A stretch of DNA of 63,908 nucleotides, the filler included, from Reclinomonas americana ATCC 50394 (taxonomy: Eukaryota), in the NCBI GenBank assembly GCA_048213135.1. It is 8 parts of 4 records of this genome, joined end to end, with 100 filler letters (N's around TTAATTAATTAA, not from the genome) between each part and the next. Parts side by side here need not be neighbours in the genome. Positions count along the whole stretch, not along the records: positions 1 to 25,627 come from PS015249.1; 7 more parts are not named here. One strand, written 5' to 3'. The notes under the pieces are model-generated. The model was not told the DNA's origin. It saw only the letters and a list, made by a program, of their open reading frames with translations, and made no database searches. Below are positions 1 to 54,760 of the stretch, in pieces (the stretch's first letter is position 1; each line of letters begins with the position of its first letter). Made by a program: the position numbers and the translations under genes.

Positions 1-565
1 TTTTCTCAACCTCTCTCACTCTCTCTTCTTCTCCTGTCTCTGCTTCCCTTGCTGATTCGTGTAACCGCTGCGTCGGCCAATCTGGCGGTGGTCCTGGGAA
101 CGATGTGGCGATTGTTATTTTCAGGGGGATTGGTGGATAGGCAATGGACGAGGTTGTTGTGTGGAGTGTCCGCCCTGCTCTTCCTCCCTGTCTTCTCTGT
201 TCTCTAGGTTGTGCACTTTGCTGCTTTGTGTCAAGCTTCTTGTATCTTCTGTATTTCTTGTTTGTCTGCAAATGAAGTCCTTTTCTCAACCTCTCTCACT
301 CTTTCTCACTCTTGTCTCTGCTTCCCTTGCTGATTCGTGTATCCGCTGCGTCGGCCAATCTGGCGGCGGTGCTGGGAACGATGTGGAGATTGTTATTTTC
401 AAGGGGATTGGTGGATAGGCAATGGACGAGGTTGTTGTGTGGGGTGTCCGCCCTGCTCTCTCTGTTCTCTAGGTTGTGCACTTTGCTGCTTTGTGTCAAG
501 CTTCTTGTATCTTCTGTATTTCGTGTTATTTGTCTGCAAATGAGGTCCTTTTCTCAACCTCTTCT
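1..565. repeat. Tandem duplication of a ~280 bp unit (two copies plus the start of a third)
   Basis: ttttctcaacctct recurs at about 1, 281 and 550. The internal block cgctgcgtcggccaatctggcgg...gcaatggacgaggttgttgtgtgg is near-identical in both copies. Confidence 0.9.
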
Positions 566-766
566 CACTCTCTCTCGCTCTTGTCTCTCTCTCTCTCTNN
601 NNNNNNNNNNNNNNNNNNNNNNNNNNNNNNNNNNNNNNNNNNNNNNNNNNNNNNNNNNNNNNNNNNNNNNNNNNNNNNNNNNNNNNNNNNNNNNNNNNNN
701 NNNNNNNNNNNNNNNNNNNNNNNNNNNNNNNNNNNNNNNNNNNNNNNNNNNNNNNNNNNNNNNNNN

Positions 767-3700
767 CTTGGAGGTTCTTGTGCGACCGTCCTCTCTTTCT
801 CTCTCTCCCTCGCCCTCCCTCTCCCTCTTTCTTCCCTTGAATCTTCTCTCTTCTCGGATTGAGACGCGCTCTTATTGTGTTCGCCTCTCACTCTTCTCTC
901 ACTTGTCCAGTGACCGCGCCACCACCGAAAGACCTCAAGACAAGGGCCTTCTCGGCGCCACGTTGGAGAAGATTGTGGTGGAGGCTGAGGAGCGGCCAAT
1001 GCCCATCAAGAACTTTCAGTTTCCAGTTCCGTCCGCATTGTCGATTCTCTTGTGACTTCCTGCGAGACTCACCGCCCCCTTCTATCTGCTGCAGAATGTC
1101 GACCCGAAACTGCTGCCACCACCCGTTCGTGAGAGCTTCCGGCTATTTCGTGGCGAGTGGAAAGTCGTGCGGAGAAAAACCAACAAGTACAAGTCTGTGG
1201 ATCTCCAGTCGGTGCGTTTCTCCCTGCGTGGCATTCTCTCTCTCTCTTCATTCTTCGCCTCTCATCTCCTCTCGCCACAGGCCACCTCTTCGCGACCAGT
1301 GTTTGAGTTGTTTGACGGCAACACGGAGTGGAATGGTGGCGCCGAGCGTGAGCTGTGCCATCGCCAATTAGTGCCGCCATATCCGCTCAAGGCGTTGCGT
1401 CCGCGTCAGCATGTGTGAGTTTCTTTTTTCCGTGGAGATCTTCTAATGTTGGTGGTCGCGTGACGCTGCAGTGCCACCAAGTTTGTCGTCACGGCGCACC
1501 GACTGTGGTTTGAGGCGGGTGATCTGGAGCCCATGTTTTGTGGACTCGCTCTGTACAACATCAAGACCCGGGCCAAGTTGTCGGAGACCTTTTATTTCCA
1601 GCTCAACGCGCGTTCACTGAACACGTTGCTGCCGACCGGCAGCGGGGCGCAGCAGACCGCGTTTGAGTTTGGTCGCGACTCGGGATCACCGTCGGTGGCA
1701 CGGGCTCTTTTTTCGCTGACCAATCCCGATCCAGCAGGTGTGTGTGAGAGGGAGATGAAGAGCGAGAGAAGTGGGAGGACGTATAGCAGCACATTCTATT
1801 CCATCTCGTTCCGGTCTTCGTTCCATGGTGCTTGCCTTCTCTATCCTCTTGCTCCTTGCTCATCCTCCTCTCTTTCTCTCTCTCCTGTCTTTCCCTTGTC
1901 TTCCCTCTTCGATTTCTCCCTTCGCCTTCCGCTTTCAGTCTCCTCCTTTTTGATCATCCCGCCTTCTCCTTCTCCTCTTTGTTCTTCCCGCCTCCACCTT
2001 CTNNNNNNNNNNNNNNNNNNNNCCTTCCCACCTTCCGCCTCCCCCCTACTCCCGTCCCCCTTCTCTCCTTTCCATTTCCTCCTTCCCCTTTTCCTCCCCC
2101 CCCCCTTCATTCTTTCCCTTTTCCACTCACCCTTTCCCTTTCCCTTCCCCCCCCCCCCTCCCCCTTGTGCAGTGGCGCTGGTGATGTGGGTGGAAAAGGT
2201 GCTGCAGGGCGCACCCGAGAGCACCACGCATCGCCCGTACACGTCCGTGCGGCTGGCAGCCGAGGACAAGAACTTTGTGCCATCTGAGTTGCGGCAGTTA
2301 TTGTTGTTGTCTTGCTTCTTCTGGTGAAGATCAATCTGACACGCGTGCAACAGAATGGCACGCCTGAAGGCACGCGAAGTGTGCATTCAGTACGGCGACT
2401 ACCGCGAGCCCTTTGTGTGGACCGCGCTGCCGCTCTTTCATCGCGAGGCCGAGCTGGCGTCGCGTCGCACGCAGGATCGTGATTTCGCCACCATGGACAT
2501 TTCGTCGGAGGGCACGTCGCCGGGTGAACGGTTGCACATGCGCAAGGGCTACATTCGTTTGCGGCCGTTGTATCAGGTGAGAATCAGCGTTCTTTGAGGG
2601 GAGAGAGAGAGAGAGCGCGCGCGCGCGCGCACGCGACTGCCGATCCACGAAGAAGAATGTGTATGCGTGCAAGATTATTTTTCCCTTCTAATCCACTTTT
2701 TCTCTCAGGTCCCGGCCTCGGACGAGTCCCGTCCGTTCGATTTTTGCGAGTACATCAACTCGGGCAATGCCGACATGCACCTGCGTATGATTCCCGGCCA
2801 CATTGCACTCAGCGTCACGTTGCGTGAACCCCCATGATTTTTCCTCCTTTCTTTCCTGACACTCGCCGCACTCCTCCGCCCTCAGTCCAATCGCCGCCGA
2901 CATTGATGACGCGACACTGGCCGACCTCGATGCTGAGGAGAAGCGCAAGCGTCGCAAGTCAACCGCCAGGGCGGCGAACGGTTCATCCATTCCCGACGCT
3001 GCGGCAGACGACTCGGACGACTCGGATTCCGCCACCGAGGACGAGGCGGAGGACGACGGCGCCGTTGTCTCGCGTGGCAGGGTGCGATCCACATTTCGGC
3101 GAATGCTCATAATGGTCAAGCTTCTGTCTCACATCTGTGTGCGATCAGGCCCAGCAAGCGCTGCGAAAGCTGGCCAAGAAGAGTCGCCGCGACGAGCAGC
3201 AAATGCTGTACCAGCGTTTCCTGTACGAGGAGCGCCTGCTGCGCAGTTACACACTGGTGCAGGAGATTCCCACCAGCATCCCGCGCACACCGTACTTTAC
3301 GTATCAGCACGAACTCTTTGTGTACCCGTTGGTGGCGCGTTTTGGCGGTGTGCGCGATGCGCGCAACATCCTCGTGAGGGTGAGTGTGCACGGACACGCA
3401 CCAGCTGCAATCTCAGCGCCACACCTCATTTCCGTGCGCACGCACAGGCCATTCTGCGCGACACGGATGACCTGCCGTACCCGATTGGATCGCTGGCCGG
3501 GAGCGATGGCAGTGGCGCACCGCCGTCACCATCGGGCGGTGGCGGCGACGAGCTGTTGCCTGGCACACTGAGTGCGTTCCGCACAAAGCACGGCTCGCCC
3601 AAGTTTTGCCCGATGGCGCAGTCGGAGGTCCACTACAATGTGCGCAACCCGCAGTTCTTTGACGAATTCCGCGTCAACCTGCCGGTGCCGTTCCAGCGCA

Positions 3701-6700
3701 AGCACCATCTCCTGTTCTTGTTCTACAACATTAGCAGTCGCCGCAACATTGTGAGCACCAACGAGCTGGTGCCGGCCACCAAGGTCAGCTGCCCGCGTAA
3801 TGACTCGTTGTGCGTCACCTTTTTCCGCTGTGTTTCTCATGGAACTTGCAGACGCTGCTGGGTTACTCCATCATGCCCATTTTCGAGGAGGGCATCATTG
3901 CGGACAAGGAGCACGAGTTGGAGGTGTACACCGGCCTCCTCTCCGGTTACATGGAGCACGGACCACGCTCGACGTTTCGTATGCGGTGTGCTCGTGGGGT
4001 TGCGCGTGGTCTCTTACATGCTTTCACACAGATGTCCGGTGGTGGCTGGCGGTCGCAAACTGTTTACGTGCCGCACGCGACTCGTTAGCACCATTCAGCC
4101 GCAGGATGATTCGGTCAACAAGTTCTACAGTGGCTGCTCTCCGCTTCTCGACACGCTGGAATTCACGTGCGTTGATTTGTGCTCGATCCTCTTCCTTTTG
4201 CCGTCTCATATCTTGCCCCTCCACTCAGTCGTGGCAAGCGCAATGTGCGTTTCCTGGAGGCCGCCCTGGGCCAATGTCGCGAGACGATGAGTGGACTGCG
4301 TCAGGCCGACTTTTCACGCCTGCTTCCGTACTTGCCCGTTGCGTGGAGGTTGACTTACTTCTACCCTGCTCCTGCTTCCTTCCTCAAAGCTGTCCTGGCG
4401 GCGTAGGTACTTCTCAATCTGCTGTTGCAAACCATGGCGCAAGTGCCTCGCCTGGTGATGGTCGACGGAGGTGGCAGCTCTGGCGGCGGTGGTGGCTTTG
4501 GCGGTGGCATGGAGCCACTGGGCATGTCATCGCCCAGTGCCTTCTCACCTCCCGCCAACGTCGCGGCGCAATCGCGGTCACCGATCCTTCCGCCACTCAA
4601 CCTGACTGGAGTGACTTCGCCAACGCTCTCGTCGCCCGGCTCGCAAAAGGGATCACCCGTGCCCGCCTTGAATCTGGCCGCACTGCAACAGACCTCTCGT
4701 TGCGTCCTCTCTGTCTCATCTTATTCTGCGCTTGTATAGTTTCGCTCACCCTTCCACATCCGTGCGCAGCCCCGCAAGCCGCCAGTGCCTCGGAAAAGGC
4801 CATGTCGCTGATCAAGTCGAACGGCGGCAGCTCGGCATCGCTTGCGTCGCCGCGCTCGGCCACCGATGCTCCCACACTGAGTGCGCTCGGTGCTGCCGGT
4901 GCACTGATGTTGCAGCCGAGACCGACTCGCGGCGTCAGTGGCGCAGGCGGACCTGCGTCGCCTCGCCAGAGCGCGGTGAGTATGCATGCTCACCTGCGCC
5001 ACACTCTTTTTTTATGAGTCGTTGCTCATGTGATTCGTGCAGGGCCACCGTTTTTCGTTCGGCCTGCGAGAGCGTTCGCACAGCACTGCCGGTGACTCGC
5101 TGGAATCGCCGCGCAGCAACTCCGTCATGAGCACGCCGGAGCAACAGAACCCGCTGGCAGCGACGGCGGCAGCCGCTGCTGCAGCAACTGGCGGCACTTC
5201 GTCGCCACGTGGATCGCGCAGATCGACCACCTTTGTCTCGATGGAGAAGGCGCCGGAGCGAATGACATCGCTGCTCACGTCCATGTTGCAAGGTTCGTGT
5301 GCCACGTAAGCTGATTCTCTCTCGATTGTCATTCACTCACCCCATGTTGGTGTTCGCTCTGCGCAGGCACGGCGGCCGCGCCCAAGCCTGTGGAGGAAAA
5401 GATCACCACGCATGCTCTCGCCGAGAAGTTGTCGGAGACCGTCAAATTGTCGTCGCCACGCAACTCGCCGCTCAACTCGCCGCGCAACTCTCTGCCCTCT
5501 GGCTCGACTCCACCATTGCGCCTGTCTGACGCACTGGCATCGCCGCCGACGGCGGGAGCAGCGCCGATCAGCATGCTCTCTGGATCGCCCGATTCACCAC
5601 GCAATGCGCTTGGCTCGTCGCCCACATCGCGTGGTTCATTCAGCGGCGGAGAGAGTCAGCCGTCGCCCAGACGGCACTCGGTGGCCATTGGATTGTCGGC
5701 GCCCCGCATGGCTGCCTCGCCTCCTGATCGTGGATCACAGCGGGTGCGTGCGCTCCACCTATTTTGGTCGTCGTCACCACTGCTTCTCATTTGTGCTGCG
5801 CAGTTCATGGAGAGTGTTTCCCACGTGCAACGCACGTGCTTCATCACTCTGCTGTCGCTGCTGCGCGAGTCGGCCAAGGCTCTCGAGATGCAGCGCGAGC
5901 GTCGCACCGTTGTGGCCTCGGCTGGTGCGTTATTGCAGCCACTTGAGCGTTGATGCTGCTGGCTCTGAGAACTTACGTACGCGTTGTGTAATAGGTGCCG
6001 ATTCGAGTGGTGACGATTCGAGCGCGCTCGCCATGTCCATCAGACTGATGCGTGGCGTGTCAACGCACAATGTGGTCCCGACTCTGCCGTCTGCGGCGTC
6101 GCTGACTTCATCGTCGCGCCGGCAGTTGCTGGGCTCTGCGTCCTCGTCGTCATTGTCGGCAGGTGTGTGTGTGTGCAACAGCTGCAGTGATTGTTGAAGC
6201 GTACTTTTTCTCCTCGTTGCATTGATCCCGGCCCCTCTTCTGTTCGCAGCAGATCCGGTGGTGCAGTCGCTGTCGTACAGCACACGACAGAACACGCTGT
6301 TGTCGTCGTATGTGCAGTACATTTTCGACAGCATGGACACGGAGCGACCGTTCCACTTGGTGCTGATGGAGGAGTGGCTGAAGCTGCTGTCGTACGACGA
6401 CCTGTTCACGCCGCAGGCCATTGACGATTTGCGTGCCCGCCTCGCTCGTCGTGCCAGTTCCGTGCCTCTGGCCACACTCCGCTCGGCCACCAGTCCATCG
6501 CTGGCCTCGGATGTGAGTCGCGTGATGGTCAGTCCCTCCAGTGGCCTCATCAGCACCAAGGCCGACGCCGTTCCCGCCGTCGACGAACCGCCGGTCAGCC
6601 CGCCACCGGCCGCTGGCTCCGCGTTTGCTGACCTGCCGCTGGAGGATGAGCGTTCTCTCCTGTCGTCGGCCACTCATGCAGATGAGTTGGAGGACGTGGA

Positions 6701-9700
6701 GGAGGTCGCAGAAGACGTCAACGTTTCGTGCATGATCAGTTCTCGATGACTCCTTGCTGTCAAATCACGTGCTTATTCCCCTTTCTTTCGCTGCTGCAGT
6801 TTGAAGACGACGACGAGATCAAGCGCGCCAATCAGCGCCGTATCGAGTTCGCCTTGCTGCTGCACCGGTTCACACGCTCACTGCCGACGGCGTCCGATTT
6901 GGAGCAGCAGGCTGAGATGCTGGCAGTGGGTCGTCGGCTCGAGGCCGAGGTTCGTGATTTTCCATGCGTATCGCCGCACTTTTATTTTCTTTGTGTGTTG
7001 AAGCGTTTCTTTCTTGCTCTCCGCAGTGCGACACGCCGCGATTGCCCATTATTATTCGCGGAGAGGATCGTCGCGAGTCGGAGCGGCTGGTTACCGAGGC
7101 TCTTGGTGACCTGAATCGCTTCACCTGGTTCTTCATGGACATCCTCATCAAGAGCCTGATTTTGTTCCTCAAGCGGAACGAATCGCAGCCGGGAAGTGCG
7201 CCCCGCAGCCGTCACGGATCTGGCGACTTGCGTCTGGACGATGTGCGTCATTCGGGACAGCTGCGGTGTTTGCAACCCAGACATGCTAACTGTTGATATG
7301 TGTGTGTGCGTAGGATGCATTGATGGACGACGACGAGCACGACTTGGAGGCCGACATGATGGACATGGTGTCGTTGATCCTGGAGGGTGTCACGCACCAG
7401 GCGTTCCACTTGATGAAGAACCAGTCGTACGACGCCAAGTCCGTGTTCACCGCCACAGAGATGGTGCGCGCTGTGGCGCTCTTTGTGCGCGATCTCATTG
7501 GCCTCGTCGACCTGTCGTTTGTCATGCATTTGGTGCGTCCGCCAACTCGACATCCAGCCCTTCCCCTTCGCTCGCTGACTCTCTTTTTCACAGGTGACAT
7601 CCTTTATGGAAAACACTGGCTTCCAGTGGGGCCGCGGTGTCAGGGACAAGCGCGCGGTCGACGATGCATCGAGCGCTGGTGCCGCTGGCGAGTCAATGTC
7701 GTCGGCCTCGCGTGGTCGCTCCAACTCGGTGATTGGCCCGGTGACGAGTTGAGTATTTTTTCTTCTCGATAATGCTTCCTGGCCTCCGCCACATGCTGAG
7801 CGCCCCCCGTCATTAGCTACCCTGATGACACCGCCTGCGTGCGCACTGACAATGCGCATGGAGTTCCTGCGTGTGCTGCTCGATGTGCCGTACCTGCTGG
7901 ACTTGTCTGGCATCCAGGTGACGGCGCCGCTGCAGTCGACGCACCCGCAACCGATTCTGCCGACTCTGCCGCAATGGCTCTCCGCCGTGTTTGTGCAGGT
8001 GCTGGAGGAGCCGACGTTGCAGACGAGGCGGCTGGTGCGCATCGCATAGTTTACTTCCTCGTTCCCTCAATTTCCCCAGCACTCACTGTTGGACGTTGAT
8101 ACAGGGAATCGCCGCTGTGCGCCAACTCTTCCGCCAGCACGACCTCGATTCAAAGTATCAGACACCGGATGGAAGACATCGTCTCGCGGCCATGTACTTG
8201 CCTCTGTTGTCCACTGTTGCGTTTGATTGCCTGGTGCTGACTCTTGATTCATTGCCGTCGCCTCACGTTTTCCATAGATTATCGATTCGGTCCTGCTGAT
8301 CGAGTTCTACACGGAGGAGGACCAGCGGGAGTTGCTGCTGTGTGCGGTGTACCTGCTGCGCAGCTTGAACCGGGAATTTGTTATGTTGCGTTTTCTTCGT
8401 GCTGGCACACCGCCTTTCAAACATGTGTTGACTGACTGCCTGCATCGCAGTGACTGGCTGAGTCGTCGACCATACTCGTTTGTATGTCGCCTGCTGCGCC
8501 TGCTGAACCACACCATTCGGCTATTTGTCAGTTCCAACACTGCAGAAGTCGACGAGGTACATTTTCGGTGTTCTCTTGTGTGCTCTCTCTGCATTGCTGA
8601 CCTTTCCGTGCAATAGGTGGTGTCTCTGAAGGACGTGTACGAACGCGGTGGTGTGGCGCCGGACACTGCAAGACACGAGGTGTTTAGCGACGTTGTTGGT
8701 CTGCTGGCGCTGGACTTGGCACGTGTGTGCATTGTGACAACTGCCAGCAAGCCGCTGGGCGTGTCGGCCATGATGCTGCAGCCGTCGGACGAAGAGGATT
8801 CCGCTACGGTTTCGTCTACACGCATGCCCTGATGATCACACTTTTTGTTCTTCAAGTCTCTGTGTCTCACTTACTGGAACAGACGGCCCCGGCTCGCGTC
8901 GCCGATTTTGTGTCCAAGACATCCAATGCCGCGGTGGATGCGCCGTCGAGTGCCACTGGCCCGATTCGTGCAATGGCGGAGGAGGCTGCGGCCATGTTGC
9001 ATCAGGCGCTCTACACGCCTGTCGAGTCTTCACGTGCCTCGCGCAATGTGACGAATCGGCTACGAGTAAGCGCGGGCGGAAGGTGAGCGAGGGAGAGGGA
9101 GCGCAAGGCAAAATGTCATCTGCGAGACACGTGATTGACCTCCGCCCTCCTTACTCGCAGCGGGTCAATGGAGTCCTCGCAACCACCACTGGACATTCTC
9201 AGCACCGTTGTGATGCGGGCTGTTACGCAGACGGTGCCGTGTTTCTTGTTGCATTTCGCGCCGTACATTGTTCCGGCTGGTCCATCTCGTTGCGTCTCTT
9301 TTGTCATCATCGTCCCCTTGACTCCCTTGCGCGAGTTCTCAACGATCGTACGAATGCAACAGCCACTGTGGCCCGCGAGTGCGGTCAACGGAGCTGGAAG
9401 CTGCTGTTCAGTGCCGTGTTTTCCCAGTGCAAGCTGCCGACGCTGCAAGAGTCGCCGCAAGAGTTGTCGGTGGTGTTGCATGCTCTCATTCGGGTCTGTT
9501 CCCCTCTTACGTCTCTCCATTCGTTCACCCGTCCATGAACTCACACTTCAATGTCCTGCAGACGGGTGAGGGCCTGCCGCTGGCAGCGAGCGACTTGTGG
9601 ATGGCCAAGTTCGCCGAGCTGTGCACCGTCATTCTGCCACAAGCAGAGCGCAGTGTGTCGGCACTGGACGGCTTCAATGTGCGCTGTCTGCAGGACTTTA

Positions 9701-12183
9701 TCTGGGAGTGCGTGACCAAGTCGGCGGTGGAGTTGCGGTTGTTTTGAATCATCTGCACAGCCGCGATGGTGTTGTGTTTCTCACACGACAATTGTTGCAG
9801 TACCGCCTCTGGACCCGTGCTCATCGAGTCGTACGATGAGGAGGTGGAGACGGCACGCGAAGTGATTCGAAGTGCCGAGCCCGAGTCGGACCAGAACTTG
9901 TTGTTTGAGGGCGACGATGAGGGTGCTGCTCCGGCTGCTGGCGCAGCGGTGGATACAGCGTCGAGCAGCGACTCATCTGCGCTGACACCGAATGCCACTC
10001 CGGACTCGGCCGACGGGCTGAGCTCATCCGCAGAGGTGCGTGTGAGGGTGGAATAGATAGAGTTCCCTCTCTCGTGTTTACGATGCTCACGCCTGTGAGA
10101 AAAATGCAGTCGGGTCCACGATCACCCACGAGCGCCCCTGCTGCTGCGGTCGCGCGCGCAGCGCGTTCACCCAACGCCTCCATCCGTGCCGGCACGGTGG
10201 AGAAGCTGATTGACATGATCACCAGCCCGAGCAATCAGGGTACGTCGTCGAGACGGCAGAGTATGAAGCAGAGAGCAGAGTGAGGGAGGCATTTTTGCTG
10301 ACTGGCTTCTTTTCCGACTCGCAGATCCCAACTACCGCACCGTTTATTTCCTCACGTACCGCTCGTTCACGCCGCCTGCCGAACTGCTGCGTGGTCTCTT
10401 GTTCCGCTTCATCGCCGCCGATGCAATGTCCGGCAACGATGACGGCATCACGACTCAAATCCGTTTGCGGTGCGTGCGCGAGATGTGATGTGAGAAGGAA
10501 GGACGAAGAGCTCATCACCCTGTCATCCGCCACAGTGTGTTTAACAACTTGCGCACGTGGGTCGACAAGCACTTTTACGATTTCGACAGCACGCTGGTGG
10601 CGAGGCTCGCGCGTTTCTGTGACATGTTCATGAGCACGCACTTGCGCGGCAATGGCGCGGCGCAGCTGCAAAAGTCGATTATCAAGCAGCTGGTGGGCAG
10701 TGGCATGAGTGGCGACATGGACTGGCAGCAGGCGCTTCAGCTGGTGACGCCGGAGCCAATGCTGCCGCGCAGTCGCATCACGCAGAACCAGACGTTTAAT
10801 CTGCTGCAAGTTGCGCCTCCTGTTCCATGGCTCTGTTGTTGCGTATTGTGGTGGTGGTGGGCGCTGATTGTTTCGTCTCGTCCCAGTGGCCGTCATTGGA
10901 GATTGCACGGCAGCTCACGCTGGTCGAGTATTCGCTCTTTAGAAGAATTCAGCCGCGTGAGTTGATGAATCAGTGCTGGACCAAGTCGCACAAGTACGAC
11001 TCGGCACCCAACATTATGCGCATGATTGACCGCTTCAACGTGGTGTCGCGCTATGTGGCGACGTCGATTGTCACCGAGCCCGACGTTGCTCGTCGCAAGA
11101 AGATCATGTCCAAGTGGATTGAGATTGCGCAGGTGAGGGAGGGGAATGGACGGGAAGGGGTAAAGGGGGGAATGGACAGAGAAGAGTTGTGTTTTATTGT
11201 GTGTGTGTGTGTGGTAAGAGTAATGATAGCGAGAGGGAACAACTATGCGTTTGAATTAGAGATAGAGAAAGCAGAGTACGTGGTGTGATGGGGAAGAGGG
11301 TAAGACATGGTTGAAATTGGAAAAGAAATGTGTGCTGAAAGGATGGGAAGTGTTGTGTGTGGAAGAGAGATAATGGATGTCACAGTGAAGTGCTGTGTGC
11401 AGGCGAGAGAAACGATAGAGAGAGTGGAGAAAAGTGGAGGAGAGATATGGAGCGAAGTTTTTGTGTGTGTTTGAGGATGCGTGTGAGTTGGTGTTCCGTG
11501 GAGTGAGAGGATTGCATAGAAGAAGAACCGTGGGTTTGCCCGTGTACGAGAGAAAGATAGTGTGGTGAAGCTTGTGTGTATGTGAGCAAGAGCGTGAGAT
11601 AAGGATATACATAGAATAGTGCTGTGTTTGTGTGCGTTGTCATCGTTCTTATGTGCCTCTCCACCTTTGCCTTCATGCCCCTAATCTCTTTCCATATCGC
11701 CCGCAGCTCTGCCGCACTCCGCTGAACAACCTCAACGGCGTGCACGAGATTCTGGGCGGCCTGTCCTCCGCCGCCGTGCATCGTCTGAAGCGAACCAAGG
11801 AGCTGATGTCGAAGCGCGTGGTACAGCTGCATGAGGAGCTGGACGAACTCATGTCGCCGCGCAACGGCATGTACCGACTGCGCCAGCATCTGCAGCAGGT
11901 GGATCCACCCTGCATCCCCTACATTGGTCTGTACTTTACGGATCTGGTATTCCTCGACGACGGTGCACCAAATACGTGGCGCGGAACGGCCATGGTGAAC
12001 TTTGCCAAGTGCCGTCGCATTGCCAAGGTCATTATGGAGATTGGCACGTATCAGCAGCAGCCGTACCCCATTCGACCGGTGCAATACCTGCTGCATCACT
12101 TGTCGTCGTCGCAGATGACGGTGCTGGACGATAATCAGCAGTTTGCGGCGTCGCTCAAGATTGAGCCGCGCGTGCGCGCTTAA
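767..12183 (+). CDS. Multi-exon DOCK-C (DOCK6/7/8-like) N-terminal, C2-DHR1 and ARM-like regions fused to a C-terminal REM + CDC25 RasGEF domain; 5' end not visible
   Basis: DOCK-like motifs: EPMFCGLALYNIKTRAKLSETFYFQLN (1533), VMWVEKVLQG, YREPFVWTALPLF, PYFTYQHELFVYP, EVHYNVRNPQFFDEFRVNLP..HHLLFLFYNIS (C2/DHR1), HDLDSKYQ..RLAAMYLPLL. RasGEF motifs: AEPESDQNLLFE, IRAGTVEKLI, FLTYRSF, VFNNLRTWVDKHFYDF, EIARQLTLVE, PPCIPYIGLYFTDL, VNFAK, SLKIEPR then TAA at 12181-12183. GT-AG introns are mostly 70-110 nt. Confidence 0.85.
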
Positions 12184-12353
12184 TCTCTTCTTTACTATCG
12201 TAACCCCAATTTTGACCTATTTTCTCTCTCTTGTGCTTTTACACCTTCGTGTCCATGTTTTTTTGTGTGTGTATGTGTGCCATTACAACTCTCCTTCTGA
12301 TCCTGTTTAAAAAAAGAAAGCCATGTACATTAATCGCTGCGCACATTTCATTG

Positions 12354-14170
12354 CTACCTCACTGGCCGATTGCTGGCCTCGCGCATTCCCTGCTCTAGAA
12401 GCTCATCGCCGACCCACAGACCCTCATTCTTTAGCCCCTGCACCTTGTCGGCATCCATGTTGACGTACCCAACGTGGCTGGCCACGCGTTTCGCTCGCGC
12501 CGCCGTGAAGCCATTGGCCAGCAGTGCCTCGTAGCCGACCAGATTGTTGAAGCGTTCGGGATCCATGGCCGTCATCACTGGAGGAGGAGGAGGAATTAGT
12601 GCAACGAAGAAGATGTAACAATGGAAGACATGGGCACGCACCGAGTCCCTCTCGAACATGCAGGTCGAGAATCGTATTGAACGCCTCCTGCTCCCAGATG
12701 CCGCGAAACACGTCGAGCATGTCAACCACTTGCGCCAGGAGACGTCGCACGCGATCATTCGGCTGTGCCAACCAGATGCCGGTGGAGAGACAGTACAGGA
12801 ACTGCAGCGAGAGACGGTGAGGTGACGGTGTGAGGTGGACGAGGGAGAGAGAGAGAGAGTGAGAGGGAGGTCGGCACGGACCGGAAACATGGGGCAGCGC
12901 GGGTACACCACACACGTGGTCGGCAAGTGGCGGAACGGCGCCCGCACTCGATTCTCGTAGCCGTGACTCCAGTACTCGGTGCGCGGGTCGGTGCTGTCGG
13001 TCAGTGCCTGCCAGTCGGGCAGCGGTGGATCCCATGTCACTCGATGCAGCAGCGTGCGATCTGCTGTGTTGCCGCCCTCGTGCCCCGACACGGTATCAAA
13101 GGCCGCAAACGCGAAATGCTTGTGCAGAAAGGGCAGTGGCTCCTGCTGGAATGCCACATCCACATCGGAGAACATGGGCTCGTAGCCGAGCACGGTGAAT
13201 GCGTGCCCATACAACCACTTCAAGTTGACTGCAGCCATGGAGGTGAGACGAAGAAAGCTGCCGAAAAGCAGACACACGGCACGCACCGTGATTGGCTGGC
13301 GTATCCCATCCACTATCGTCCACGTACAGCAAATCGGCAGGAAAGTTGGCCTCCTGCACCAGCGTCACGCGCGTCCGCTCATCGGTACACACCACCAGCG
13401 GGCGCTGAAAACGCGTGTTCCGTCGCAGGTGGTACACCCAGTTGAAGAGCCACTTGGCGTAGCCGACATTATGCACGCGCACCACCGTAAACATGACAAC
13501 ACGAGTGCCCGCGGCCACAAACTCCTCGGCCAGTCGTCGCGCACTGACATCAATGAACGTGCTGTTGGCGTGGTGGTGCGTGAAGAAGAAGCGAGGGTCG
13601 AGTCGCGGAGCCTGCACAAAGTCGCGTTCCAGTGCAGTGCACTCGTCGGCGGTGCGAACGAGGGGGGTCTGTGGAGGGCAAAGGAGATGGATGAGGAGGG
13701 GAGGGAAGAGAAGGGGAAGAGAAGGGGAAGAGAAGGGGAAGAGAAGGGGGGAGGAGAAGGGGGGAAGGAGAAGGGGAAGAAAGCAGAGAGCAGAGAGCAG
13801 AGAGAGAGAGAGAGAGAGCAGAGCAGAGAGCAGAGAACAAAGAGCAGAGAGAAGCGAGAGAGGAGAGAGGAAGAGAGTTGCTCACCGGCACATACTCAGG
13901 TCGAGGCAAATGCGTGAGCTTTGCGCGATGCACAGGGCCTTCTGTGAGCATAGTGCGCATGCCACTCACACTGCGCGCGCTGACCACTGCAGCCCACACA
14001 GAGGCGACAACCGCAAGAGCAGCACAGAAGAGGAGACTGGCGACGAGAAGTTGCATGGAGGAGGGATGCATGAGAGTGAGAGGTCGTTGTTGAGGTTGAG
14101 GTTGTTGTGAGAGAGAAGGAGCGGTGAGTGTCACTCGCACATCATCGCCGCCGTTGTTGGTCGAGGTCAT
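12354..14170 (-). CDS. Nucleotide-diphospho-sugar transferase (GT77-like), type II membrane protein, spliced
   Basis: N-terminal hydrophobic anchor LLVASLLFCAALAVVASVWAAVV; NVGYAKWLFNWVYHL, PLVVCTDE; LGYEPMFSDVDVAFQQEPLPFL with a DxD motif; EQEAFN. Start codon uncertain. Confidence 0.7.
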
Positions 14171-14239
14171 GCTGATGAGCGCATATGCGCAAAGGAAGAC
14201 GAGAAGGAAAACGAAATTGAGAGGACTCTTGCAAAGGAC

Positions 14240-14590
14240 GAAGGAGGAAGCTGCTCGAAGGGGAAGGCTTGTGTGTTGCAGTTGCCACTTATGCTGCGTT
14301 GCAAAGTCGAGGCAGCATTGAGCGATCTTTATCGATATCGAGATCGATCCATTGAAGGAGGAAGCTGCCACTGTCGAAGAGAAGCGATCGCTCATCGCAC
14401 GTACCAGCCGTACGTATACAGCGTTCAGTATCGATATCATAATCGATCGACTGCGAAGGACATACAGCTGTGAAAAGGAAGCTGCCACTGTCGAAGAGAA
14501 GCGATCGCTCTTGCCCTTGCTCAAAAGTAGAGACAGCATGCAACGATTGACTGCGAAGGCACAGATCTGAGAAGACGGCGATCGCTCCTG
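14240..14590. repeat. Short dispersed/tandem repeat upstream of the GT77-like gene
   Basis: aggaagctgccactgtcgaagagaagcgatcgctc occurs at about 14358 and 14476, with partial copies at about 14240 and 14570. Confidence 0.7.
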
Positions 14591-14722
14591 CCCTGCTCAC
14601 TGCAGCTGCCGTGCCTGCATCGCCGTAAAGATATCGCTACAGGGTTCGCTCTCTCGGCTGCTATTGTGTGTTGGNNNNNNNNNNNNNNNNNNNNCATTTC
14701 ATTCTCTACACTATCTCTCTCT

Positions 14723-24906: not shown

Positions 24907-25671
24907 NNNNNNNNNNNNNNNNNNNNGAGAGAGAGAGAGGAACGGGGGACGGGGGTCAGAAATGAGCGCGGAATATGCGTGCTGTGTGTGTATGAGAAGG
25001 GGAAGGGAGAGGGTGTGTCTCTCGCCGCACCTCTTTATCAACGGCTGCATACGCACACTCTCTCTTTCTCCTTTTGCGTCGACATTCCCAGTTCGTAGCA
25101 CTCTTCCTCTTCTCGTTGGCTCCTTCCAATGACAGACACGGCCAACAACAACGCAGTTTGTCTTGTCTCCTCCTGCCTGTCACTGATATCTTCGAGTTCG
25201 TAGCACTCTTCCTTCTCTTCGTTGTTGATCACGTTTGTGCGCATCTCGCGTGCACATCCCACGTGCCGCCGAAAGTGATGGTCGACAGCTCTGCAGTGTG
25301 TCTTTGTAAATTCTGCTCTCTTTCTCCACTTGCACTCTTCCTTCTCATGTTGGTGTGACCGCGTTCACTTCCTCGTCGCACATCCCTCAGGTGAAGCACG
25401 GCGTTGACAGCCCCGCAGTGTGTCTCTCACAGCAGCTGCTCTTTCTTCACTCGTTTATGTCACCTCTTTCTCACCGTCGAAAGCTGTCGACCGTTGCACT
25501 GGTGTGATTGGAAGGAGAGAGAGAGAGATAGAGAGAGAGAGCGCGTCTCATTCGACTCTGTGCTTTGAAAGCTGCTTCTTATCTCTCTGCACTGTGAGTG
25601 TATCACTGACTTGCTCTGTTACAATGCNNNNNNNNNNNNNNNNNNNNNNNNNNNNNNNNNNNNNNNNNNNN

Positions 25672-25683
25672 TTAATTAATTAA
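25672..25683. other. Artificial scaffold linker TTAATTAATTAA in N-runs (also at 40275, 49070, 55120, 57663, 58839, 60767)
   Basis: The identical 12-mer, which puts stops in all six frames, is centred in symmetrical N blocks at seven positions. Confidence 0.95.
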
Positions 25684-25727
25684 NNNNNNNNNNNNNNNNN
25701 NNNNNNNNNNNNNNNNNNNNNNNNNNN

Positions 25728-26915: not shown

Positions 26916-27058
26916 GGGGGGGGGCGCGGGGGAGAATTCACCTGTCCACTCGAGTCGACAGCTTTAAATCCCTCATATAATATCACTCGCTCGCTCTCAC
27001 GCACTCACTCACACACACACTCTCTCTCACTCACTCACTCTCTCTCTCTCTCACGCGA

Positions 27059-43727: not shown

Positions 43728-46700
43728 TCACGGTGGTGCCGCCGCCGTTGCTGGCGTTGCCGCTGCATGCGGGGGCGGCACTCGTGGTGGCGCGGCTGCA
43801 TGCCGTATCTTCACGAGTTCGAAAACCAAATCAGTCGAGGAAAGTCGCTTCGCCATCGACTGCAACCCAAACTCATTAGCAATTCACACCCAGAGCCGTT
43901 GTCAACAAGAAGCTCTCCACCACGCAACTTTCCAGCACATCTTGATCACTTCACGATGCATGCTAAATGCGTACAACGATGTGTCATCCAACGTTCCCGG
44001 CATTCTGCCGCGACTCACTGCGTCCAACAGATGTGTCGCTCCCACACCATCGTATGGCTTGGTCCGAGTGATGCAGTACCACAGAATGGTGCCGAACGAG
44101 AACACATCGGCGCGCTCGTCGTACTGCACGCATACACGGCGAAGGGGTATGAGTGCATGGGAGGCAGACACTCGCGCCCGCTAGTGCTGCAGCGTGCGCG
44201 CTCTCACCTGCTCGTCCTTGAGCACTTCGGGTGCTGCAAACGCCGGCGTACCCACTTTGCTTCGCATGCGGCCCAGCGTGCACCACTCCCTGGCCTCGCC
44301 AAAGTCACAAATTTTTAGAGTGCGGCAATCGCCACTCACGAGAATGTCTGCCACACATGCGGGATGAGTCTTGGAGCTCATAATCACCGAGTAACGGAGC
44401 TGGGACGCAACTCTCGGGTTTCAAATCGCGATGCACGACTCGTCGAATGTGCATGTGTTCAAGCGCCTCAGCGACTTGCAGGAGCAGATCGATCAAGTCC
44501 TCCGTGGGGAAAGTGCGATCGTCGATCAGCGATTGCAATGTTAGTGGCGCTCCGCCAACCTCGCCAACATACTCCAGTACCAGAGCGGGACCTCCAGGCA
44601 TCCCGTCACACACTGCATGCAACTTGACGATATTCGGATGACTGTACGCTCAGAGAAAGTCAGCAAAGCGAGCGACGCATCGGAGAAGCAACTAGAGACT
44701 AGACAGGGACGAAACTCGAGCTTCATCAGCTGGTGCTCCTCGTTCTGCAGCGACTCCAATGCTTCATCACTTTCGGATACGTATTGCTTGTACACCACGT
44801 CCATCTGCTGGCCATCGATCATGCATGTGGCTCGGCATACCAGCCACTGACCTGTTGTGCGACACAATGAGGAACGCTGAAGTTGACGACGACGTGAGCA
44901 AAAGCTTGGAGGACAACTGACCGATTGCAAGTGGGATTCTGTCAATAATGGCGTCTGGCTGCACACGTGGCGCACGAAGCACAAGTCGTTTGACAGCCTC
45001 ATTGTATTCCTCGTCCGTAACACGCATCCGACGAATATCTGTGATGTACGCACACAACGCAACGGTGGACAGTGTGAAGACTGAACAAGGCATCGCTTCG
45101 TGACCATACGATAGTTGACACAACTGTCGTATGAGATGAAAAACTCATTGATGCACTCGTGTCCGCCTGGGAACAGCTGGTGCAAAATGTCGTGAATTGC
45201 GCGCATCCAGTACAAGTACCTGCTGTCGGAGAGGGCCGCCGAAGCCACCAAGTGCGAAACCTCGTTGCGGCATTTCTTCAACTCATTCACCATACGAATC
45301 TGCTCAGGTTGCACCTTGAGGGATGGACGGAGTAATATGCACTCTGCATAGACACGGCACGCAACAATGGCCGCGTCTGTCCTCTTATGCAACAGTCGCA
45401 CAGCCTTCTGATCCTGCCCGGGACCACTGCCGACTCGGACGGCATAATCGCTAATGCTCCCATCGTCACAGGCTACAATCGGCACGTACGAGATCTCCAG
45501 CAACAGCGTGGCAAGCAGAGTCACATCCATTTTCGCGGTTGAATCCGACCTCGAGCTATTGAAGAGAAGTCTGAATTCTCGCACTGCGTTGTGTTTGTCG
45601 TCGAAAACTTTTGCCGCACGCCGCTCCTCGTTCCCGTCCTTGTCCACAGAAAACCAGGCGTAACTGTGAATACAACAGCGACACAGTGAGCGAGACACCA
45701 AGTGGAGAGACATTGAAAACGACCTCTCTCTCTCTCTCATCTTATCTCATGCTCACCGAGCAGGAATTTCCGTCAATGGCTGGCAAAGTTGCTCAATATC
45801 ATATTCAGGGAACAGCCTCATGAAGCTCGACATACGGTCCACAAAGAGTGCACCAAGAGCCTTGGGGACAGCGTTACGCATCATTTCGTCAAGCATCATG
45901 ACTTGCCGACGGTCGCTGCGTGTCGCCAGGGATGTGATGAGAGAGCAACCAGTGTTGGAGAACAACATCGAACTCCAGCGCACCGGAGAAACGCGGACTG
46001 CGTGGTAGTGATGGAAGCGCGCAACGAATGTCTGTCAGCTTCCGATTCTGCAAGCGACCGCCGTGCATCGTCCAGCCGTTGCTGCAAGTCGGAAACTTCA
46101 TGCGCCAGTTCGTCTCTGGCTCTGAGAAGCTCCATCTCACGTTCCCGCTGTCCAGCGACAACAGATACCAGCTCTTCCAGTCGTCGGCGAAGTTCCTCTA
46201 CTTCGGAGTGCTCTTCATGCTGCGAGCTGCCGGGAGGAGGCTATTGAAATACGAATGTGTAAGTGCGATGCTCGAGAGCAACTGCACACAACGATTGGAG
46301 GAGTGACAAACCTGACTGCTTGATGGGCCGACTGCGCAGTGGACGCACGCACACACACAGCGAGCAAGACGTATACAGCAAGAGAGGAGAAATACGATTG
46401 CCAAACAGGGTTAGAAAAAAACAGACCCCCGTTAACAATGCACCAACGCACCTCCTGCAGATCTGGTGGGCGACTGCTGTCGGAGGCGTGCATTGGTGCC
46501 CTTCCCCTCCAACTTCCGAGCAAGGTCCTCGTGCTTATTCCTCCGTGCGACTTCCGCAGCAGTACAACCGTCGCCATCAAGTCTGTTGATGAGGTCTGGA
46601 TACCTGTCGGCGAGTTGGATGGCGACTCGGGTGTGGCCCCTAGTGGCTGCGCAGTGCAGCGCGGTCGAGCGAGGAGCAATATCCAGCATGCGATCGGAGG

Positions 46701-47264
46701 TGACGGCAACAGCAACTTCGCGGGGGCATCGCTGGGTGTCTGCCAACAACCAGTCGACCACAGGTTGCACACCGTACGTAGCGGCGATCATGAGCGGCGT
46801 CCAGTTCCCGTCGGCCACCGTCACTGCAAGCCGTGGCCCGATCCCGGTGTCACGCCAGAGGTAATTTAGCAGTTCGATGTGACTGCGACGAGCGGCAATG
46901 TGGAAGCAAGTCCAGCGATTCTCGTCCTTTTCCGACTCCGCAAGTAGAATTGCTTCTCCCTGTTGATCAACCAATGCACGCAGCTTACCCAAAGCGCCTC
47001 GATTCGCCAGTTGCCATGCTGTTGCATGATCTTCGTGTGTGTGGGGTGTCGGAATGAGAGAAGAGCGTGGAGGAGAGCAAGTGATCTGAATAAAACCATA
47101 CCTCCGACACCAGCCGGGGGACTGCTGACGCCTGCACTGCCACTGCTGTCAGTGGATGCAGTCCATGCTACTGACGACGCGGTGGCGGCAGCAGCTGAAT
47201 GATCGGGGCCCGGGGTGAGCTCGTCGGCAACCACGTCGTCGTCACTGTCGTCGTGCGTCGCAGA
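43728..47264 (-). CDS. Ankyrin repeats - coiled coil - DZIP3-like HEPN domain - Ser/Thr (TKL-like) protein kinase; possible 5' exons extend to the ATG at 48441
   Basis: In-frame GT-AG path with no N gaps. Ankyrin exon 46452-47030; coiled coil EVEELRRRLEEL..LQQRLDDARRSL; HEPN-like MMRNAVPKALGALF..MDVTLLATLLL..ELKKCRNEVSH..LSDSRYLYWMRAIHDIL; kinase VVYK, LQNE, HPNIVKL, HRDLKPEN, ICDFG, GTPAFAAPE, DVFSFG, MCW; TGA at 43728-43730. Confidence 0.82.
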
Positions 47265-52917: not shown

Positions 52918-53592
52918 TTAATTCTGCACCCGCTCCTCACCCTCCTTTCTCCCTTCCCCCTCTACTCCCTGTCCCCCTTCTCCACCCTCATCCTCTTCAT
53001 CATCGTTGAGTCCACTGCGCGCCGCATCCTCCAACAAATCGGCCACCGGCGCGAGCCCGCGCTCCACGCACATATTGTACTTGGCCTCGGCAATCATCTG
53101 CGCAATCTCCTTGCCCGACATGTACATGCCGTCGGCGTCCCACAACAGCGGCTGCTGGTTGTACGAGTCGTCGCGGCGAACGAGCGCATCCAGTCGCACC
53201 CGCTCCATGTTGACCATTTTCGGCGGGTACGAGTTGGCCAGCGACAGGCCGAATGTGGTGTGCGTGAGGCCGACGGTGTTGGCCAGATTCTGAAACGCCA
53301 TGTGGCCGCCCCATACCGCATTCAACGCCGGCATCACTTGCGTCACGTGCGCACCGCGTTGCATGAAAATCAAGTTGGACATGCCGGCGCCGTGTGCGCT
53401 AATCAGCAGGTCGGTGCGCGACAGCAGCTCCACCACGTCGCGCTGCGCGTAGGCGCCGAAATCCACTGCGCGCGCATCGACGCGGAGATCGGGTCGCAGG
53501 TGCTCGGGCATGGCGACTTCGAGTTCGTGCGCCAGGTTCTCGAAGCGGCGCTTGGCGCGTTGCAGAATGGTGACGCGCATGGGTCGTTCGTC
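52918..53592 (-). CDS. Glycosyltransferase family 61, last exon (copy 1)
   Basis: VTILQR..RRFEN; DLLISAHGAGMSNLIFMQRGAHVTQVMP; FQNLANTVGL. Confidence 0.85.
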   Translation of the reverse strand, partial: DERPMRVTILQRAKRRFENLAHELEVAMPEHLRPDLRVDARAVDFGAYAQRDVVELLSRTDLLISAHGAGMSNLIFMQRGAHVTQVMPALNAVWGGHMAFQNLANTVGLTHTTFGLSLANSYPPKMVNMERVRLDALVRRDDSYNQQPLLWDADGMYMSGKEIAQMIAEAKYNMCVERGLAPVADLLEDAARSGLNDDEEDEGGEGGQGVEGEGRKEGEERVQN

Positions 53593-53619
53593 CTGCGAAA
53601 AAGGGAATGGTGTGAGAAA

Positions 53620-54760
53620 GGGTTGAAAATCGACGGCCGCGAAGCGGCTGTCGTGAGCAGAGAGGAGAATGAGTGAGGGTGAAGAAGACAAGGATGGGGG
53701 GTGTAACGATGTGAGATGAAAAGGAATACTGCTGACGGCCGCGAAGCGGCTGTCATGAACGCGGAGAAATGGATGTGACCTTCAAGGATAGAGCAAGAAG
53801 ACGGAAGACGCGAGAAGGCAAGCTGCTTACACACGAGGCGAAAGAAATGCTGACAGCCGCGAAGCGGATGTCATGAACGTATTGAGATAGATGTGACATT
53901 CCGGGATAACGCAGGAGAGAAGGAAGAAGGCAATCACGCACGAGGCGAAAGGAATACTGCTGACGGCCGCGAAGCGGCTGTCATGAACGCAGAGAGATGG
54001 ATGTGCCCTTCAGAGTAAAGCAGGAGAGGAGGAAGACATAATGCGAAGCGGCTGCCATGAGCGCAGAGAGATGGATGTGACCTCCAATGATAGAACACGA
54101 GAAAAGGAAGACTAAACACACTGCGAACGAGAGTGAGAAGGCTATCTGATTACACCCGATGCGAAGAATTCTGTTGACAATTGCGAAGCGGCTGTCATGA
54201 ACGGCAGTATGATGGATGTGACATTCAAGGATGAAGCAAGAGAGACGAAAGACGCGAGAAGGCAAGCACGCACGAGGCGATAGAATGCTGACAGCCGCGA
54301 AGCGGATATCATGAACGTAAAGAGATAGATGTGACATTCCGGGATAACGCAGGAGAGAAGGAAGAAGGCAATCACGCATGATGCAAAAGGAATACTGCTG
54401 ACGGCCGCGAAGCGGCTGTCACGAACGCACAGAGATGGTAGAGACCTTCAAGGATAGAGCAGGAGAGAAGGAAGACTGAACACACTGCTCGAGAAAGCGA
54501 GAAGGCAAATCACGCACGAGGCGACAGGAACTGCTGACGGCCGCGAAGCGGATGTCTTGAACGAAGAGAGATGGATTTGACATTCAAGGATAAAGCAGGA
54601 GAAAAGGAAGACTGAACTCACTGCAAGAAAAGCGACAAGGCAATCACGCATGATGCAGAGGAGTACTGCTGACGGCCGCGAAGCGGCTGTTACGAACACA
54701 GAGAGATGGGTGTGATCTTCAAGGAAAGCAAGATCGACAGCCAACGACGCGTGACTTGCA
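53620..54760. repeat. Intronic minisatellite, ~100-130 bp unit (second version at 56560-57400)
   Basis: Core tgacggccgcgaagcggctgtcatgaacgcagagagatggatgtgac repeats roughly ten times. Confidence 0.88.

Follow-up and report, generated by a model that had tools for sequence, protein, structure and literature searches.

A predicted gene joining a DOCK-type scaffold to a REM-CDC25 module in Reclinomonas americana

The window analysed here is a stretch of 63,908 nucleotides (nt) of DNA from Reclinomonas americana ATCC 50394. Its subject is a predicted gene on the + strand, near the start of the window, in which a scaffold of the kind found in DOCK proteins is followed by the REM and CDC25 domains of a Ras-type guanine nucleotide exchange factor (GEF). 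The window region is eukaryotic in character: its G+C content is ~58%, short introns are numerous, and the low-complexity spacers are CT-rich. The sequence is a gap-rich draft with 27 runs of N. Positions 2023-14674 are free of such runs, and from the DHR-1 domain to the stop codon the gene forms one contiguous block. We consider it very probable that the locus holds a single gene for a domain-swapped GEF of ~2550 residues, in which a DOCK-C-type scaffold without the DHR-2 domain leads through a linker into REM and CDC25, and that this gene belongs to a small conserved family of protist proteins. The features are collected in Table 1. An earlier note on this DNA, made from the sequence alone, had placed the gene at 767-12183. 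The end of that span holds, since the frame closes with the TAA codon there. The start does not hold, as position 767 is the edge of an N run (599-766) and the first in-frame ATG of the model lies at 999. Since no stop closes the frame between that ATG and the gap edge at 767, the 5′ end of the model is provisional.

Table 1. Predicted gene and its parts, in window coordinates.
Feature	Coordinates	Strand	Details
Whole predicted gene	999..12183	+	35 exons, 34 GT-AG introns, 2548 codons + TAA; splice-aware dynamic programming with manual corrections
DOCK-C/D-type N-terminal region and first C2-like region	1095..2576	+	exons 1095-1414, 1472-1770, 2173-2308, 2354-2576
DHR-1 (DOCK-type C2 domain)	3149..4166	+	exons 3149-3373, 3448-3783, 3852-3985, 4032-4166
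Armadillo-type helical scaffold	4229..8526	+	colinear family-profile domains 2-6
Lineage-specific linker	8617..9740	+	model exons 8617-8808, 8883-9033, 9363-9493, 9562-9740
Pre-REM segment and REM (RasGEF_N) domain	9801..10809	+	exons 9801-10035, 10110-10239, 10325-10484, 10536-10809; PF00618
CDC25-homology catalytic domain (predicted)	10887..12180	+	exons 10887-11132, 11707-12180, split by 574-nt intron; PF00617
Stop codon TAA	12181..12183	+	frame end of model; ends of relatives differ from it by a few residues at most (tblastn)

The gene model was built by a dynamic program that used codon log-odds trained on 19 homology-supported segments, allowed GT-AG introns of 40-1500 nt and iterated the splice-site matrices. 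The introns of the resulting model are 44-574 nt long (median 71), and reading is open throughout with no stop. The whole path scores 1024.6; the reverse complement reaches 108.2 and four block shuffles reach 15-34. When compared with a profile of the family made from six sequences, the spliced model gives an E-value of 1.1e-263 and 864 bits in 7 colinear pieces. Two manual edits were made. Two exons at ~9.8-10.3 kb were refined (donors 10036 and 10240), with a change of the family-profile score from 860.7 to 864.2 bits, and exon 11419-11559, which the program had called inside the CDC25 intron, was dropped as false because relatives join the flanking residues directly. The intron in question (11133-11706) is purine-rich on the + strand, and its open frames misled the exon finder; the GC skew around it, at 10.5-12 kb, is +0.28 to +0.30. 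At the other end of the locus, upstream of the gap, positions 1-598 contain two similar copies of a stretch of ~275 nt, and the translations of the open reading frames (ORFs) 1-207 and 276-1055 share long near-identical runs. Tandem Repeats Finder, run on positions 1-2400, listed short CT-rich arrays and not these copies.

Relatives with the same architecture were sought with the last CDC25 ORF (11620-12180) as a HMMER query. The search returned 6403 proteins at E<=0.001, the best of them with 37-48% identity, and 150 were listed. Among the 18 of these 150 top RasGEF relatives that were scanned with Pfam, two carry DOCK-C2, RasGEF_N and RasGEF together. The first, P0015, is a protein of 2100 residues encoded by an uninterrupted 6.3-kb ORF on a 6750-nt contig. 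The second, P0085, is the 2419-residue protein ANDGO_07803 of Andalucia godoyi, annotated as ‘Ras guanine nucleotide exchange factor J’. A further protein, P0156 (2114 residues, uninterrupted ORF on a 6919-nt contig), is 78-80% identical to P0015. Since P0015 and P0156 nearly fill their contigs as single ORFs, there is no room for two genes on either. With residues 1-1700 of P0015 as a query, phmmer matched six of 156 collected proteins: P0015, P0156, P0085, the metagenome protein P0044 (1478 residues) and the N-terminally truncated P0041 and P0063. Weak DOCK_C-D_N matches were found in three of these six (Pfam, E<=10). By tblastn, P0015 and P0085 match window positions 1-14500 colinearly on the + strand from ~1.1 kb to 12171, from the N-terminal region through CDC25, and all four full-length chimeras (P0015, P0156, P0085 and P0044) are colinear with the window over both modules, in the same order.

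The architecture is rare among the proteins found, and it is annotated there only as ‘RasGEF J’ or ‘hypothetical protein’. Residues 550-1700 of P0015, used as a query, matched P0015 and P0156 only. A search of a large protein collection with the family alignment gave 77 proteins, in which the only chimeras were again P0015 and P0156; as this word-based search missed P0085, it says little about how widespread the chimera family is. The Pfam entry PF28208.1 stands in the precomputed Pfam lists of canonical DOCK-C/D proteins and of P0015 and P0156, and was not among the matches from the local Pfam copy. It probably describes a DOCK scaffold family of more recent date, and it would serve well as a marker for the group.

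Comparison of the sequences supports the assignment of the front of the gene to a DOCK6/7/8-like (DOCK-C type) scaffold. The N-terminal region matches residues 57-439 of P0015 and 248-507 of P0085 by tblastn, and the first domain of the family-profile alignment covers profile positions 183-623 there. DHR-1 was found by Pfam as DOCK-C2 (PF14429) in ORF 2860-4287, at residues 240-294 or window positions 3577-3741 (E 7.6e-15; 55.8 bits, cutoff 33.6), with a sub-threshold continuation at 3849-3956 in ORF 3804-4085. The whole DHR-1 region is colinear with the relatives by tblastn. Its exon 3448-3783 matches the DHR-1 of DOCK8 (7clx, 1.8e-7) and DOCK6 (6.5e-6) in preference to DOCK1 (0.031) and DOCK2 (0.24). 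The armadillo region carries low-complexity inserts rich in Ser, Pro and Ala at ~4.4-5.8 kb. Its last segments in the tblastn with P0015 and P0085 are 8096-8221 and 8299-8382, and DOCK-like matches are last seen at 8105-8233 and 8278-8400, so that similarity ends at ~8.4 kb. The earlier note had read DOCK6/7/8-like motifs up to about 8.5 kb, and these results bear it out. ORF 8278-8613 had no match among proteins of 197-2000 residues, a size range that excludes the long relatives. Searched against the sequences in the PDB, the family profile matches a human DOCK6 chain over residues 109-1316 (N-terminal domain, C2, DHR-1 and armadillo repeats) at E 2e-70, with profile positions up to 866 aligned to DOCK6 up to residue 1316, and the DOCK8 DHR-1 at 1e-23. 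In a large protein collection it finds mainly vertebrate DOCK8 and DOCK7, at ~1e-85 to 1e-90.

The rear of the gene carries a REM domain and a complete CDC25 domain, as the earlier note had claimed, and the two motifs that it had quoted from the REM side, AEPESDQNLLFE and IRAGTVEKLI, were located at 9874-9909 and 10182-10211. The blastp alignments of this side to the relatives begin at 9703-9880. Pfam reports RasGEF_N (PF00618) at 10318-10476 in ORF 10267-10485, with 31.2 bits against a cutoff of 28.3, and a sub-threshold continuation at 10516-10602 in ORF 10489-10962. RasGEF (PF00617) is matched in two parts: ORF 10800-11285 covers profile positions 1-78 of 181 (window 10899-11132, E 1.4e-25) and ORF 11620-12180 covers positions 83-181 (window 11722-12015, E 2.5e-27). 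The ORFs of the window thereby give the Pfam outcome that had been expected, namely DOCK-C2, RasGEF_N and RasGEF without DHR-2. In the search of PDB sequences, the family profile matches the REM and CDC25 domains of SOS1 at E 5e-100.

A structure was predicted for the relative P0041 (827 residues) with AlphaFold2 from an alignment of 50 rows. The model has a predicted local distance difference test score of 82.9 and a predicted template modelling score of 0.72. Residues 412-827 superpose on SOS1 574-1022 with Z 39 and a root-mean-square deviation (rmsd) of 2.1 Å over 394 aligned residues at 33% identity. Residues 1-408 are all helical in the model.

Several points weigh against a single domain-swapped gene that belongs to a conserved family. 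The gene model is approximate and comes from our own dynamic programming, in which one false exon (11419-11559) arose. P0044, P0041 and P0063 are metagenome gene calls and could be mis-joined. The chimera family does not form one clade in unconstrained quick trees of CDC25, where the chimera label needs three changes. Among 48,161 representative chains, the P0041 pre-REM helices are, RasGEFs apart, most like the armadillo region of DOCK5 (784-1140; Z 13.3, rmsd 5.1 Å, 339 aligned residues), a value at which, for a helical repeat, a common arrangement may explain the match; exportin-4 follows with Z 11.7, and comparison of the whole 827-residue model tests the helices weakly. Because Z 13.3 is borderline for helical repeats, the predicted structure agrees with the evidence from sequence and adds little to it. 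For the linker (window 8398-9826, model residues 1782-2051), neither the family profile nor blastp shows a significant resemblance to the relatives. Within it, positions 9030-9340 lack a coding signal, with a stop in frame 2 at 9084 and an ATG in frame 1 at 9113. Comparative evidence is the basis on which the locus is predicted to give a single transcript.

The linker is where the rival reading with the best standing applies, in which two genes lie next to each other: a truncated DOCK-like gene would end at ~9.0-9.1 kb, an independent RasGEF gene would start soon after it, and the exon path between them would be an in-silico artefact. The missing coding signal at 9030-9340, the stop and the ATG within it, and the lack of conservation of the linker with relatives all speak for two genes. 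Because of the stop and ATG in this interval, we leave the two-gene reading a small residual probability, and on the remaining evidence we regard it as unlikely. The interval without coding signal is just ~300 nt long, and the stop and the ATG would stand 26 nt apart. Codon scores in frame 1 between 9113 and ~9330 are close to zero or negative. Since no coding signal was found there, 9034-9362 was modelled as an intron of 329 nt. An extra exon in frame 2 at ~9162-9279 was considered and rejected, as no GT-AG pair restores the downstream frame and its codon scores are near zero.

The linker exons on both sides of this intron, in contrast, look coding. They were outside the training set of the program and show in-frame codon log-odds of 0.15-0.54 per codon and negative values off-frame, a G+C content at third codon positions of 0.68-0.81 like that of the other exons, and agreement with the sliding profile. 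The ORFs of the linker gave no significant Pfam match. The exons in 9363-9740 are coding-biased even though they lie upstream of any RasGEF homology, which speaks against two genes. Over the untrained interval 8400-10320 the path scores 93.6, against 19.9 for the reverse complement and 6.4-17.6 for block shuffles, none of which (0 of 10) reached it. The in-frame GT-AG exon path from 8617 to 12183 that had been traced in the earlier note is confirmed by the dynamic-programming model, which shares its acceptor at 8616/8617. Both modules occur together in four full-length relatives, in two of them within an uninterrupted ORF. Together with the open, coding-biased exon path, these relatives bear out the reading of the locus as a single gene that runs into REM and CDC25.

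If the locus is a single gene, its CDC25 domain could still be a non-catalytic pseudo-GEF, so that the protein would act solely as a scaffold. Catalytic activity of the module is a prediction from sequence, and CDC25-like domains of the NSP/SHEP type are among the structural matches (3t6g, Z 19.7). However, in an alignment of 50 RasGEF sequences the domain keeps all 10 invariant and all 13 near-invariant columns, 23 of 23, and its closest solved relatives are active GEFs: the last exon is closest to RasGRF1 (2e-30), followed by SOS1 (1.4e-20). We therefore hold a pseudo-GEF to be quite improbable and take an active Ras-type exchange domain as the preferred prediction.

The absence of DHR-2 had been proposed from the sequence and is borne out by two kinds of search. 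With Pfam, DHR-2 families were found in none of the 64 stop-to-stop ORFs of the + strand; permissive searches at E<=10 gave no DHR-2 match in 31 ORFs of at least 30 residues covering 6.2-10.6 kb, including the interval 8.6-9.8 kb in which such a match would have told against the proposal, and none in the six relatives. A custom DHR-2 profile of 622 positions was made from the C-terminal 620 residues of 14 canonical DOCK-C/D proteins among the 77 from the large collection. It finds all four canonical DOCKs that had been held out (one from a dictyostelid, one from a schistosome and two more) at E 7e-94 to 6e-261, whereas its best E-value is 1.7 among 443 ORFs from both strands of window positions 1-14600, the gene model and the six relatives. 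Of 67 carriers of PF14429 among these 77 proteins, 64 also have PF06920, a DHR-2 family; the exceptions are a fragment of 810 residues, P0015 and P0156, and the last two carry RasGEF families in place of PF06920.

A DHR-2 domain that is present and too diverged, or split over exons too small, to be detected would make the protein a dual Rho/Ras GEF. The exons are indeed short, and the linker of ~270 residues has no assigned domain. Such a linker is nevertheless too small. In the DOCK6 paper, the N-terminal domain is followed by C2, DHR-1, armadillo and DHR-2, and the DHR-2 construct comprises residues 1587-2047 (PMC13503879); the DHR-2 of DOCK5 is placed at 1216-1642 (PMC8294757), so that constructs of ~430-460 residues exceed the linker. 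In P0015, which is free of introns, the part alignable to DOCK6 ends at residue 1535 and REM starts at ~1689, and just ~155 residues lie between them. In the prediction for P0041, the part before REM consists of helices only. Both Pfam and the custom profile are negative, although the profile recovered four of four distant canonical DOCKs, the dictyostelid included. A hidden DHR-2 is therefore very unlikely. As the DOCK6 alignment stops at residue 1316 and DHR-2 occupies 1587-2047, the relatives keep the scaffold up to the mid-to-late armadillo region and lack the rest. Extremely improbable, finally, is a chimera of the assembly, in which a gap-rich draft with its many N runs would have fused separate DOCK and RasGEF loci in error, since there is no N run in 2023-14674 and a misjoin would need to copy by chance the exact order and orientation of independent relatives.

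How the chimera family arose was examined in trees of the CDC25 domain. The window protein groups with P0015 and P0156 (Shimodaira-Hasegawa-like approximate likelihood ratio test support 89-90), and the other members form a second group. The three changes that the chimera label needs in these trees compare to a mean of 6.6-6.9 in shuffles, none of which (0 of 500) was as low. The constrained and the quick free tree were compared by the approximately unbiased (AU) test on 41 rows. When seven members and two short fragments are kept together, the tree gains 17.4 log-likelihood units over the quick free tree (p-AU 0.816), the fragments having been chosen after the first tree had been seen. As far as these sequences go, a single origin of the chimera family is compatible with the data. 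A tentative proposal, which we find plausible but short of probable, makes the chimera a third branch of the DOCK superfamily that is old, arose once and occurs in several deep protist lineages, a jakobid and this intron-rich organism among them. In this branch the phosphoinositide-sensing scaffold of DOCKs would have been turned from the activation of Rho to that of Ras or Rap. If true, it would mean a direct link from lipids to Ras in these cells without counterpart in animals, fungi or plants.

For the protein as a whole, the following mode of action can be proposed. DHR-1/C2 domains of DOCKs bind phosphoinositides, and REM-CDC25 modules carry out exchange on GTPases of the Ras subfamily. 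The N-terminal ~1800 residues would comprise the N-terminal domain, the first C2, the DHR-1 C2 and the armadillo repeats. DHR-2, including its dimerising lobe A, is missing, and its place is taken by a putatively helical linker of ~270 residues and a complete REM-CDC25 module of SOS/RasGRF type. By analogy with DOCKs, the C2/DHR-1 and armadillo scaffold may bring the protein to membranes that contain phosphoinositides and to its partners. Once at the membrane, the CDC25 domain would be expected to catalyse the exchange of GDP for GTP on a member of the Ras subfamily (Ras or Rap) and not on Rac/Cdc42. Since DHR-2 is absent, the protein cannot serve as a GEF for Rac/Cdc42 in the way that DOCKs do, and since lobe A is absent, no canonical DOCK dimer would form and its regulation cannot copy that of the DOCK dimer. 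On this view the DOCK scaffold would be an autonomous and reusable targeting module, and in some protists phosphoinositide signals may feed directly into Ras-family GTPases. The gene family would also offer a natural experiment on the role of the N-terminal two-thirds of DOCKs independent of Rac/Cdc42 exchange. Genome surveys in which the C2 domain stands for ‘DOCK’, or CDC25 for ‘RasGEF’, will assign such genes to the wrong class.

Other features were observed elsewhere in the window. Four long ORFs with strong WD40/beta-propeller matches (E 1e-41 to 1e-70) lie at 26981-28147 (+), 28635-29858 (-), 29753-31042 (+) and 31162-32361 (+); they may be neighbouring WD40 genes in a cluster or parts of a single large gene with several propellers. 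A gene for a dynamin-like GTPase of the RHD3/Sey1 type extends over several exons at 35309-39616 (+) and is broken by N runs; a match to RHD3_GTPase (E 8.8e-37) is followed by matches to the Sey1 three-helix bundle. Two ORFs of glycosyltransferase family 61, at 52921-53781 and 55852-56616 (both -), give near-identical matches with E 3e-8 each, which suggests a local duplication. An ankyrin-repeat ORF was seen at 46435-47148 (-) and an ORF with EGF/DSL-like cysteine-rich repeats at 63001-63795 (-). The N runs are often paired, with 44 and 44 bases separated by 12 bases (25628-25727, 40231-40330), a pattern of scaffolding or masking and not of biology.

In the literature, DOCKs are described as having a conserved core of C2 (DHR-1) and DHR-2 that is extended by no more than one SH3 or PH domain (Fort and Blangy 2017, PMC5499878). 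No description of a DOCK-RasGEF chimera was found in a full-text literature search, whose coverage ends short of subscription journals and supplements, and the paper on the Acrasis genome is silent on DOCK. The window gene is a further member of an apparently undescribed family, in an intron-rich and GC-rich eukaryote. Among known systems, human DOCK6/7/8 (DOCK-C; DOCK6 cryo-EM structure 9vm2) are homologous and colinear to it over the N-terminal domain, the first C2, DHR-1 and most of the armadillo region. The window gene family differs from them in that the last part of the armadillo region is missing, together with the whole of DHR-2 (DOCK6 1587-2047), that is, the dimerising lobe A and the catalytic lobes B and C. 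SOS1/SOS2, RasGRF1 and yeast Cdc25 share the complete REM-CDC25 module with the window gene. Their DH-PH, histone-fold, IQ and SH3-binding parts are absent from it, and the module is placed on a DOCK scaffold instead. The closest likeness in architecture is to Andalucia godoyi ANDGO_07803, P0015, P0156 and P0044, which combine DOCK-C2, RasGEF_N and RasGEF without DHR-2. Identity to these proteins is just 27-29% over the DOCK part and 31-40% over REM-CDC25, and the linker is not alignable. The window gene has 34 introns, whereas P0015 and P0156 are encoded by uninterrupted ORFs.

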